28,632 bases of DNA, from positions 1-28,632 of the forward strand of contig JBBRIK010000001.1 in the NCBI GenBank assembly GCA_038221045.1, in the 5' to 3' direction. The notes beneath the pieces were generated by a model, which made no database searches, was not told the origin of the DNA, and saw only the letters and a program-made list of their open reading frames with translations. This DNA is from Gemmatales bacterium (lineage in GTDB: Bacteria > Planctomycetota > Planctomycetia > Gemmatales > Gemmataceae). Numbering within the stretch: position 1 is the first letter of the stretch; each line of letters starts with the position of its first letter. The position numbers were made by a program, and so were the translations under genes. This document shows positions 12,345 through 15,339 of this stretch, in pieces.

Positions 12345-14114
12345 TTGTCCGCCGTCGTCAAGACCTGGCGCCTGCTGCCGCACGATTTCGCCGCGGTCCA
12401 GCACCTGGCCCATTCGATGAGCCTGGCCCCCGTCGTCGCCCAGTTGCTGCTCAATCGCGGCGTCTCCCGTCCCGAGGATGTCCGCCGATTCCTCGACGCC
12501 CCGCTCGCCGGCCTTCATCCGCCCGAGTCGCTGCCCGGCGTCGTCGAGGCGGCGGAGATGCTGCTGAAGGCCATTCGCGACAACCGCAAGATCTGCGTCT
12601 ATGGCGACTATGACGTCGATGGCGTCACCGGCACTGCTTTGCTCAAGCTGATCCTCCAGGCGGCCGGCGCTACCGTCGATGTGTATGTTCCCCATCGACT
12701 CGAAGAAGGCTACGGACTCAATCGCGAGGCCCTGACTCAGATTGCCGCTGGCGGGGCGAGCGTCGTCGTCACGGTCGATTGCGGCATCGCCAGCCTCGAC
12801 GAGGCGGACCTGGCCCTCCAACTTGGGCTGCAACTGATCGTCACCGATCATCACGAGATGAAGGATCGTCTGCCGGCGGCGGCCGTGCTGGTCCATCCGC
12901 GTCTGCCGGGGACGAACTATCCCTTCGGCAAGCTCTCCGGCGCCGCCGTCGCCTTCAAACTGGCGTGGTGTTTCGCGCAGAAAGTCTGTGGCAGCGACAA
13001 GGTGACACCGCGTTTTCGCGAGCTGCTGCTCGACGCCGTCGCCCTCGCGGCCCTCGGCGTCGTCGCCGACGTCGTACCCTTGTGGGACGAGAATCGCATC
13101 CTGGTCAAGCACGGCCTGGCGCGTCTGCGCCAGCAACCGCCGCTGGGGCTGAAAGTGCTGATGGAGGTGGCAGGCGTGCCGTCAGGGCAGGCCCTGCGCG
13201 CCTCGGACGTCGCCTACAAGTTAGCGCCGCGGATGAACGCGGCGGGCCGGCTCGGCTGTGCCCTCCTTGTCGTCGATCTGCTGACGACGACCAATCCGCA
13301 GAGAGCCGGCGACCTGGCCCGCGTCCTGGAGGATCACAACGTTCAGCGCCAGACGCTGGAACGCACCATGCTCCGCACCGCGCGGGAGCAGGTCGATCGG
13401 CTGCCGCTGGAGGCGGCGCTGGTGCTTGCGAGTGGACAGTTTCATCCTGGCGTCGTCGGCATCGTGGCGAGCCGGCTGGTCGATCTGTACGCCCGGCCGA
13501 CGCTGATGATCGCCCTGCGTTCTCCGGGCGACGACGGCGGTCCCATCATCGGCCAGGGCTCGGGGCGATCGATTCCCGGATTCGCCCTGCACTCCGCCCT
13601 GGAGGCGTGTGGCGATCTGCTGCTGAGTCATGGAGGCCATCATCAGGCGGTCGGTCTGAGGGTTCACGCCCATCGCATCGACGAACTGCGCGAGCGTTTC
13701 TGTGCCTATGCCGCGCGTCATTTTCCCGGTGGCCCGCCGCCGCCGGAGATCGTCCTCGACGCCGAGGTGCCGCTCTCCGCGCTGACGGTGAAGCTGGTCA
13801 AGGACCTCGATCGGCTGGAGCCCTACGGCTGCGACAATGACGCGCCGATCTTCATGGCGGGCGACCTGCGTGTCGAGGGCGAGCCGCGCAAGGTCGGCCA
13901 GGGCGAACGGCATCTGAGCTTTCGCGTGCGTCAGGGCAGCATCGTGCTAAAGGCCATCGCGTTCGGCATGAGCGAGCGCATGGAGGAGTTGATGTCGGCC
14001 GGCGGCGCGTGCTGTCTGGCATTCACGCCCAAGATCAACGAGTGGCAGGGCCGCCAGTCGGTGGACCTTGTCGTCGAGGACATTCAGGCCGGCCCGCGCG
14101 CGGCGCTGACGTGA
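12345..14114 (+). CDS. recJ: Single-stranded DNA-specific exonuclease RecJ, 589 aa
   Basis: [46 protein letters not shown] motifs; TTG start after GAGGGAG. Confidence 0.96.
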
Positions 14115-14123
14115 GGTTTGTCT

Positions 14124-14178
14124 TGCCGCTTGCGGCGTAGCGGCTGGTTCTGAAGCACCCGCTACGCCGCAAGCGGCA
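14124..14178. repeat. REPIN-like paired palindrome, family A, between recJ and aroC
   Basis: Perfect 20-bp arms TGCCGCTTGCGGCGTAGCGG / CCGCTACGCCGCAAGCGGCA. Confidence 0.9.
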
Positions 14179-14193
14179 GACTGCGAGCCAATC

Positions 14194-15339
14194 ATGCCCG
14201 GCAACACCTTCGGCAAACTGTTCCGCGTCACGACGGCCGGCGTCAGTCACGGTCCCGGCTACGTCGTCATCATTGATGGCTGTCCGCCCGGTCTGCCGCT
14301 GTCCGTCGAGGACTTGCTGCCGGACCTGCGCCGCCGCCGGCCCGGTCAGTCGAAGATCGTCACCCAGCGCAAAGAGGACGACGAGCCGGAGATCTGGTCC
14401 GGCGTCTTCGAGGGCCGCACGGACGGCACCTCGATCGGCATTCTCTTTCGCAACGCCGATCAGCACAGCGGCGATTACGGCGACATCAAGGACAAGTATC
14501 GTCCCGGCCACGCCGACTTCACCTTTGACGCGAAATACGGTTTTCGCGACCATCGTGGCGGCGGACGCTCCTCGGCGCGCGAGACTGTCTGTCGCGTCGC
14601 GGCGGGGGCCATCGCCAAGAAGTTGCTGGCGACGCAAGGAGTGCGCGTCCTCGGCTACGTCACGCAGGTCGGCGACGTCTGCTGTCCCGTTGACGATCCG
14701 GCAGCCGTGACGCTCGAACAGGTCGAGGCGACGCCGGTGCGCTGTCCGGATCCCGCGATTGCCGAGCGGATGATCGCATTGATTGAGGAAGTGAGGAAGG
14801 ATCAGGACTCGATCGGCGGCATCTGCGAGCTGGTGGCGGCCGGTGTGCCGGCCGGCTGGGGCGAACCCGTCTTCGACAAGCTCAAGGCGGACCTCGCGAA
14901 AGCGCTGCTGTCGCTGCCGGCCGTGATGGGATTCGAGTACGGCGCAGGCTTTGGCGTCGCGCGCCTCCGTGGCAGTCAGAACAACGATGTCTTCGTTCCC
15001 CTCACCCCTTCCCCCTCTCCCCTGTCTGGGGGAGAGGGGAAAGGGGTGAGGGGGCGTCGCATTGGCACCGAGACGAATCGGCACGGCGGCATGCTCGGCG
15101 GCATCTCCAGCGGTGAGCCGATCGTCTGCCGCGTCGCGATCAAGCCGACGAGCAGTTTGCCGCGTTCGCAGCGAACGGTGACGCGAGCCGGTGAGGCGAC
15201 CGAAATCGCCACGCGCGGCCGGCACGATCCCTGTCTCTTGCCGCGCTTCGTGCCCATGGGCGAGGCAATGCTGGCGCTGGTCCTCGTCGATCACTGGCTG
15301 CGCTACCGCGCCCAGTGTCCGCAACCGAATGGGGAGTGA
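14194..15339 (+). CDS. aroC: Chorismate synthase, 381 aa, with a 19-aa repeat-derived insertion
   Basis: [67 protein letters not shown]. Confidence 0.97.
14998..15053. repeat. Palindromic repeat (family D) inside the aroC reading frame
   Basis: CCCCTCACCCCTTCCCCCTCTCCCC-TGTCTG-GGGGAGAGGGGAAAGGGGTGAGGGG; 24 of 25 arm positions complementary; encodes [19 protein letters not shown]. Confidence 0.9.

Follow-up and report, generated by a model that had tools for sequence, protein, structure and literature searches.

A palindromic insert in frame within a chorismate synthase loop of a Gemmatales bacterium is very probably one copy of a dispersed G/C-rich repeat

We analysed a stretch of 28,632 nucleotides from a Gemmatales bacterium (contig JBBRIK010000001.1 of assembly GCA_038221045.1, positions 1 to 28,632 of the forward strand), hereafter called the window, in which the gene for chorismate synthase, aroC (14194..15339, + strand, 381 codons plus stop), carries an in-frame palindromic insert of 57 nt (14998..15054, + strand). 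We consider it very probable that this insert is one copy of a dispersed, G/C-rich repeat of the Gemmatales, resembling the repetitive extragenic palindromes (REPs), that was gained in the aroC gene of this lineage and is tolerated in a loop of the enzyme. The repeat is found elsewhere in the same genome and in many other genomes of the order, the same loop of AroC has been filled in many related bacteria by diverse repeat copies, and the closest relative of the window's aroC lacks the insert.

The insert occupies codons 269-287 of aroC. The first base of codon 269 is position 14998, and the 19 codons of the insert are in frame. The initial annotation of this DNA had described a near-perfect palindrome starting exactly at codon 269 and yielding 19 residues; this proved correct, except that the length given, 56 bp, has to be amended to 57 nt. 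A repeat search recovered two arms of 25 nt each (14998-15022 and 15029-15053), 96% complementary, with a mismatch at one of the 25 positions and 6 nt between them. Two boxes of 11 nt, GGGGAGAGGGG and GGGGTGAGGGG, together with their complements, make up the insert, in the symmetric order C-out, C-in, loop, G-in, G-out, and for this reason we refer to the repeat as the double-box family. The left, C-rich arm (14998..15022, +) consists of the outer box CCCCTCACCCC (14998-15008), the spacer TT and the inner box CCCCCTCTCCCC (15011-15022). It is followed by the hairpin loop TGTCT (15023..15027, +) and by the right, G-rich arm (15028..15054, +), with the inner box GGGGGAGAGGGG (15028-15039), the spacer AAA and the outer box GGGGTGAGGGGG (15043-15054).

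Folded as RNA, the insert reaches -59.3 kcal/mol, compared with -34.1 +/- 3.5 kcal/mol in 200 shuffles (z -7.18), none of which folds equally well, and the chance expectation of its core pattern in the window is 0.00. A canonical G-quadruplex motif, with four runs of G4-5 and loops of 3 nt, was detected by regular expression in the G-rich half (from 15028 on the + strand; the mirror half on the - strand). A search against Rfam 15 returned only generic miRNA-hairpin matches below threshold (at most 40 bits, against cut-offs of 55-180), and no terminator-like site was found. Four of the six reading frames of the palindrome contain no stop codon, as do five of the six frames of the canonical repeat unit described below. 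Read in the frame of aroC, the insert would give 19 residues in which Pro, Ser, Gly and Thr are abundant and which probably form a flexible loop.

To look for further copies, we used the pattern GGGGMGAGGGG-N1-4-GGGGTGAGGG, with the reversed pattern as a control, on the assembly of this genome (1467 contigs, 7.1 Mb, 63% G+C, a bin 84% complete). The double-box pattern was matched 26 times, both strands of the aroC insert included (14999-15022 on the - strand and 15029-15052 on the + strand), against no match of the reversed control, and about 70 inner hairpins were counted, with three recurrent loops (CGCTTCG, TATCCT and CGGCTTTGCG). The expectation that the motif has other copies in the genome is therefore borne out. 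The canonical unit, present in about 33 copies, reads TCTTGCT, inner hairpin CCCCTCGCCCC-loop-GGGGAGAGGGG, a 2-nt spacer (Y-T) and outer box GGGGGTGAGGGG; it is asymmetric and 45-55 nt long. Copies often form inverted pairs or short arrays, and many are located at contig ends. Inverted dimers of the family were found in this genome on contigs C22, C762 and C732, and many +/- and -/+ pairs, 5-70 nt apart, are present in four other genomes (G373, G405, G438 and G440). One of these, G440, carries as genomic repeats symmetric -/+ pairs only 5-7 nt apart, which is the architecture of the aroC copy.

The distribution of the family is uneven. The double-box pattern is present in 44 of 121 sampled Gemmatales genomes, with 1-213 matches each, and outside the order in just 5 of 300 sampled planctomycete genomes, while the reversed control gave a single match in each of two genomes and none elsewhere. 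Among the genomes that we compared for copy number (this genome, G000, together with G001, G373, G405, G415 and G440), matches range from 0 in G001, which belongs to the same genus as the window's genome, through 26 here to more than 200 in some genera. Patchiness is also seen within genera, since one of 19 genomes of genus g20 has the pattern, versus six of eight of genus g270. These copy numbers suggest bursts or horizontal spread. A literature search on palindromic repeats of Gemmata returned no relevant paper.

The gene that hosts the insert is intact. The listed open reading frame (ORF) matches the chorismate synthase family PF01264 along the whole profile (1-327 of 327, E 7.2e-132), and its product matches 11 solved chorismate synthase chains. 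Relative to Pseudomonas AroC (5z9a), the insert segment appears as an insertion of about 17 residues, and the HMMER alignment to 4lj2 splits at this place. The segment between D265 and N295 is 29 residues long in the AroC of the window and usually 13-14 residues long in 85 diverse AroC sequences, in agreement with the earlier statement that the enzyme normally has only a short loop there; a literature search on this loop in solved AroC structures gave nothing usable. We then modelled the protein with AlphaFold2, using the 85 diverse sequences, as an earlier run on 38 near-identical sequences had given a predicted local distance difference test (pLDDT) value of 63. The resulting model has a mean pLDDT of 93.2 and a predicted template modelling (TM) score of 0.93, and its TM scores to solved chorismate synthases are 0.86-0.96. 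Residues 271-290 form its sole low-confidence internal blocks (means 56 and 61). Since these lie between the strands 267-269 and 290-292, the insert is predicted to extend the tip of a beta-hairpin, as the surface-loop placement proposed in the initial annotation had it. When compared with the insert-free gene of a same-genus relative, the window's aroC shows a ratio of nonsynonymous to synonymous substitutions (dN/dS) of 0.11 at a dS of 0.54, and the insert-bearing gene is accordingly under purifying selection. From the open frame and this ratio, the insert would be translated and the enzyme that bears it active.

Units of the family also occur in frame in other coding DNA of this genome. A search of the proteome for peptides of this kind, suggested in the initial annotation, recovered those of PLTPTPSPQDRGEG, PLAPSGGEGSGVRG and PSPPTPLPPGGRGE within the Pfam domains of three other proteins. 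The unit PLTPTPSPQDRGEG lies between two Mo-cofactor domains of a xanthine-dehydrogenase-type subunit (C141:5410-5451), PLAPSGGEGSGVRG right after the HRDVKPANILV catalytic loop of a Ser/Thr kinase (C574:2046-2085), and PSPPTPLPPGGRGE inside a DUF7133 domain (C161:2469-2508). In eight orthologs of the dehydrogenase-type protein, the loop at this place is short or of a different kind, and the start of the element overlaps native Ala-Pro-Leu codons. In one relative (G007), an unrelated insert of 23 residues is present at this site, which indicates that it, too, is a variable loop. ORFs that run across repeat copies on contigs C394, C102, C762, C479, C86 and C22 lack Pfam support and were not counted as coding, and three units on contig C35 turned out to lie upstream of a truD domain, not within it.

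To date the arrival of the insert, we compared the window's AroC with its nearest relatives, in quick-search protein trees in which the loop was masked and many branches are weak. The protein (L001) is sister to that of the same-genus genome G001 (L002), with a Shimodaira-Hasegawa-like approximate likelihood ratio (SH-aLRT) support of 95 and 90% amino acid identity. The loop of the G001 protein reads FINKGDRIG, and the palindrome is absent. Five further near homologs have the loop F[IV][NK]KG[DE][RH]IG, so the alignment with close relatives gave the empty sites that an insertion calls for. This short loop of G001 and the near relatives resembles the loop found in the sister family of the order. 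The genome of G001 (8.5 Mb, 78% complete) gave no match to the double-box pattern. That the aroC copy was gained after the split from the same-genus relative, as a recent and lineage-specific event, forms part of the explanation favoured above and is held with the same high confidence. As only one arm position is mismatched despite a dS of 0.54, the insert is either much younger than the split or its arms have been kept matched.

Repeats have entered this loop of AroC in other lineages as well. Loops of at least 16 residues were found in 63 of the 120 nearest homologs (80-87% identity). By their signatures, 7 of these long loops are symmetric-like, 19 have only the G-rich outer box (unit +), 14 only the C-rich outer box (unit -) and 7 contain dimers or arrays, the other 16 being of other kinds or decayed. 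Comparison of the loop DNA from 194 loci revealed canonical asymmetric units in two frames (L031 versus L117 and L036), a unit that runs the other way (L249), dimers of two units (L115, L035 and L140), inverted pairs (L133 and L172), arrays of three and four hairpins between outer boxes (L033 and L139), GGGGAGGGG box variants (L058, L092 and L164) and small unrelated hairpins (L122 and L037). One locus, L166, has a wholly different palindrome with arms of 28 nt (arm core GAGCGTGAGCGACCGGAG). It is the dominant repeat of its own genome, the Fimbriiglobus-labelled G436, with 383 matches against none for the control, most of its copies there being hairpins in which about 10 nt separate the arms, and single arms of it are present in the AroC loops of L009, L135 and L062. 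All five tested genomes with double-box inserts in AroC hold double-box matches (10-228). The boundaries of the inserts vary by 0-6 codons among lineages.

Several independent gains are required by the variety of the inserts, which are not alike in orientation or frame, nor in the number of units or the repeat family. On the loop-masked trees, the insert state changes 16-29 times, at least 7-8 of the changes being forced by well-supported branches, and a tree that unites the 19 loci with hairpins in one clade is rejected by the approximately unbiased (AU) test (log-likelihood difference 608, p 9.5e-80). Among 173 distinct AroC genes from this clade, the loop is the sole internal position with insertions of more than 6 residues (31 sequences). 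The other internal region with length variation is a 6-residue insertion after residue 179, in 3 of the 173 genes. One permissive site, together with the filter of selection, would be sufficient for the recurrence. Nevertheless, a preference for the site at the DNA level may also play a part, given the identical boundaries in some lineages, the Pro...Gly codons, which give CCC...GGG microhomology with the ends of the element, and the spacers, which co-vary within each hairpin (TT/AAA in the window, AA/TT in P0010 and AA/GT in P0002).

We also searched for hallmarks of mobilisation. The tetranucleotide tags of REPs, GTAG or CGTC, unpaired at one end of the stem, are absent from the flanks of the 26 copies, where the left consensus is TCTTGCT and the right side has none; the CGTC that follows the aroC copy is part of native Arg-Arg codons. 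As for target-site duplication, there is no excess of matching 3-6-mers between the flanks at any offset (best 3 of 24, versus 0.5 expected). The copies thus do not show terminal inverted repeats with a fixed-length target-site duplication, and the unit itself is asymmetric. A candidate for target mimicry, between the aroC codons GTCTTCGTY and the conserved left flank GTCTTGCT, was rejected, as the likeness is weak and absent at the other in-frame sites. As for the earlier description as a mobile palindrome, mobility is deduced from dispersal and patchy distribution; a mobilising enzyme was searched for and none was found.

Taken together, the steps of the favoured explanation would be as follows. 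The symmetric aroC copy would have formed when a head-to-head dimer collapsed, leaving one inner hairpin with the outer boxes around it. It would have entered the aroC of this lineage after the split from the same-genus relative, at the tip of a beta-hairpin, the sole site of the enzyme at which long insertions are tolerated. The ribosome would read through it as 19 residues, and the rest of the enzyme would stay under purifying selection. The insert would persist because four of its six frames are free of stops. We infer that the copy arrived by copying or transposition rather than by allelic recombination, that it is neutral and that it is translated.

Several observations weigh against this explanation. 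No double-box copy lies within 1.5 kb of 21 loci for Y1_Tnp transposases in five repeat-rich genomes, nor on the four contigs of this genome that carry Y1_Tnp genes. Such genes occur in 102 of the 121 genomes irrespective of repeat content, and none was found in G407, which has 28 double-box matches. There is no second copy of the exact symmetric 57-mer in this fragmented assembly of 1467 contigs (84% complete), symmetric copies having been seen only in other genomes. Set beside the closest empty sites, the insert is no clean insertion, since it stands in place of four native codons (AAC AAG GGC GAT), and its boundaries are identical in three lineages that are not sisters (the window, P0002 and P0010), which could mean either that it spread as aroC alleles recombined or that a site-specific process was at work. 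Some of the empty sisters may be remnants of deletions, as the loop ..PAGEGRIG of P0067 beside ..GGEGGPNIG of P0021 suggests; part of the scatter on the trees may then come from losses, with gains and losses both contributing. Finally, the Logan contigs from the run that matched best (X1, 34% of words) cover both flanks exactly, and none of them spans 14951-15058; one contig, 90-95% alike, skips 106 nt and probably belongs to another organism.

The replaced codons, the lack of another symmetric copy in this genome and the shared boundaries and symmetric architecture of the window, P0002 and P0010 (TTC-RTY/CCCCTCACCCC ... GGGGG/CGN, slashes marking the boundaries) would all be expected if homologous recombination with an already filled donor from another Gemmataceae lineage had brought the insert in, along with a short piece of aroC. 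In the pair L033/L034, moreover, divergence in the 28 nt that directly follow the insert on its downstream side far exceeds the 8% average of the gene. We nonetheless regard such an import as quite improbable: beside the insert, identity to P0002 and P0010 does not rise (0.73-0.86 in 90-nt windows, against 0.83 overall), the spacers differ among the three lineages and co-vary within each hairpin, and this genome has its own active-looking family with the same boxes, of which the insert-free same-genus relative has none. It is unlikely, although somewhat less so, that the AroC loop is a true integration hot spot for copying without a transposase. Pro...Gly codons in the loop would give CCC...GGG mini-hairpins in G+C-rich genomes, and repeats with a C-run at the start and a G-run at the end would be copied into these by synthesis templated on microhomology; the few native codons between them would be replaced, and homogenisation of the arms against each other would follow. 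A hot spot of this kind would explain the boundaries shared by non-sisters, the replacement of codons, the co-varying spacers and the lack of both target duplications and a REP-associated tyrosine transposase (RAYT). In a variant of it, the double box, with a perfect G-quadruplex motif competing with the hairpin, may be a functional DNA element.

We find it very improbable that the insert is instead ancestral to the AroC of Gemmataceae and selected as a peptide, as a DNA or RNA hairpin or as a G-quadruplex, the short loops being the products of many deletions. Palindromes are prone to deletion, over half of the 120 closest homologs have a related insert at the same site, some of the short loops resemble what a deletion would leave behind (PLPPDQGR, PLTADDQGR and PAGEGR), and the arms remain paired, with co-varying spacers. 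Against this, loops of 13-14 residues are found in the sister family of the order and in bacteria more broadly, six concordant loops of the ancestral type NKG[DE]R are present in the window's own clade, the inserts are unlike one another in frame and orientation, in the number of units, in their boundaries and even in the repeat family they belong to, their peptides are conserved no further than the DNA boxes dictate, and the AU test excludes a single clade. Least credible of all is an assembly artefact, in which a fold-back or a misjoin caused by repeats would have arisen in a metagenome bin built from short reads, the palindrome being missing from the aroC of the organism. The bin is indeed highly fragmented, with many repeat copies at contig ends, and the Logan contigs of run X1 break off on both sides of the palindrome. 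Yet the insert is exactly 19 codons long, in frame and without duplicated flanks, both flanks are collinear with relatives, and dozens of independent assemblies, chromosome-level and large-contig ones included, have analogous in-frame repeats at the same codon position.

The gain of a dispersed repeat copy by a tolerant loop, which we favour, has parallels in known systems. Rickettsia palindromic elements (RPEs) were reportedly found by Ogata et al. in 2000 in frame within conserved genes, where they are said to be read as extra surface peptides that leave the protein intact. RPE-1 elements measure about 100-150 bp and are restricted to Rickettsia sequence families. The case described here shares with them an in-frame palindrome in a housekeeping gene, which is a functional resemblance with no claim of sequence similarity; the double-box element differs in being 45-57 bp long, extremely G/C-rich and in a taxonomically unrelated host. 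REPINs, the REP doublets that RAYTs are said to mobilise according to Bertels and Rainey in 2011, likewise have inverted hairpins with co-varying arms and patchy, lineage-specific expansions to hundreds of copies, whereas the double-box family has neither a flanking RAYT gene nor a GTAG head.

The closest parallel is that of intragenic REPs. Di Nocera, De Gregorio and Rocco (2013, BMC Genomics 14:522, PMC3733652) described G+C-rich stem-loop REPs that are dispersed, often as inverted dimers, and lie occasionally in frame inside known genes. Over half of the intragenic inserts were dimers or groups encoding 20-30 amino acids, and they were found in many phyla (PMC3733652). Different REPs were located at about the same site in recB of two Xanthomonas species, and the authors judged intragenic REPs to be probably neutral, since they lie in permissive regions (PMC3733652). 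For the REPs tagged with CGTC, with which RPE-4 and RPE-6 were equated, no dedicated transposase was found (PMC3733652), a trait that the double-box family shares. It also resembles intragenic REPs in consisting of short, G+C-rich, imperfect palindromes with many dispersed copies, frequent inverted dimers and in-frame occurrence in genes. On the other hand, it lacks the GTAG or CGTC tag, has two boxes, with an extra outer one, and shows no association with RAYTs; its hosts are Gemmatales, the target is aroC, and recurrence in the same loop is far higher than that reported for any gene in PMC3733652. The proposal of an RPE-like, in-frame insertion in a loop of a core enzyme is therefore supported, as an event of a kind already known from RPEs and intragenic REPs (PMC3733652). 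Two features set it apart: the repeat family has two boxes but neither a tag nor a RAYT link, and one enzyme loop has been recolonised with unusual density and variety.

The aroC case offers a view, in a single loop, of selfish or self-copying hairpin DNA feeding new peptide into an essential, conserved enzyme, and loops of other lineages in which boxes are broken or partial look as if they were decaying into ordinary loop sequence. If the loop were a true hot spot, new protein loops in Gemmatales would have a general source that is driven by repeats. The many natural filled and empty alleles provide material on how untagged, RAYT-less, REP-like repeats spread. In practice, Gemmatales assemblies break at copies of the family, which also gives rise to an excess of 'hypothetical' peptide motifs (PLTPNPSP and GEGxGVRG among them), and the AroC loop marks a position that is safe for engineered insertions in chorismate synthase.

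Two further kinds of insert were observed in the same AroC loop. In a Gemmata/Frigoriglobus-labelled clade (L011, L142, L059, L089, L109, L152, L102, L155 and L096), the insert comprises 25-30 residues that are conserved and not palindromic, around an Asp-Cys-Asn core that does not vary (..HESPVAPDAADCNA.AWEP.H..). It looks like an established loop, possibly functional, and not like repeat DNA. A locus labelled Phycisphaeraceae, of another planctomycete class (L189), has the hairpins CCCCTCTCCCC-ACG-GGAGAGGG and GCCCTCACCCTCTCCC-GGA-GGGAGAGGGG; the phenomenon thus reaches beyond Gemmatales, unless the bin is mislabelled.

Other hairpin repeats are present in this genome. Between recJ (12345-14114) and aroC, at 14119-14180, the window contains an inverted doublet, ...GCCGCTTGCGGC-GTAG-CGGCT ... 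AGCCG?-CTAC-GCCGCAAGCGGC..., which is a GTAG-tagged REP pair of the classical RAYT-type kind, so that two or more hairpin families, unrelated to each other, are present in the genome. A GTAG unit and a double-box unit lie immediately side by side on contig C37. The family of the GTAG doublet is a better candidate for mobilisation by a RAYT than the double-box family. The best Y1_Tnp (IS200/RAYT-like) gene of this genome, on contig C435 (L195), is followed by a palindromic array of yet another, third type, made of GATTGCGCAATC units (1049-1104), which may be the cognate repeat of this transposase.

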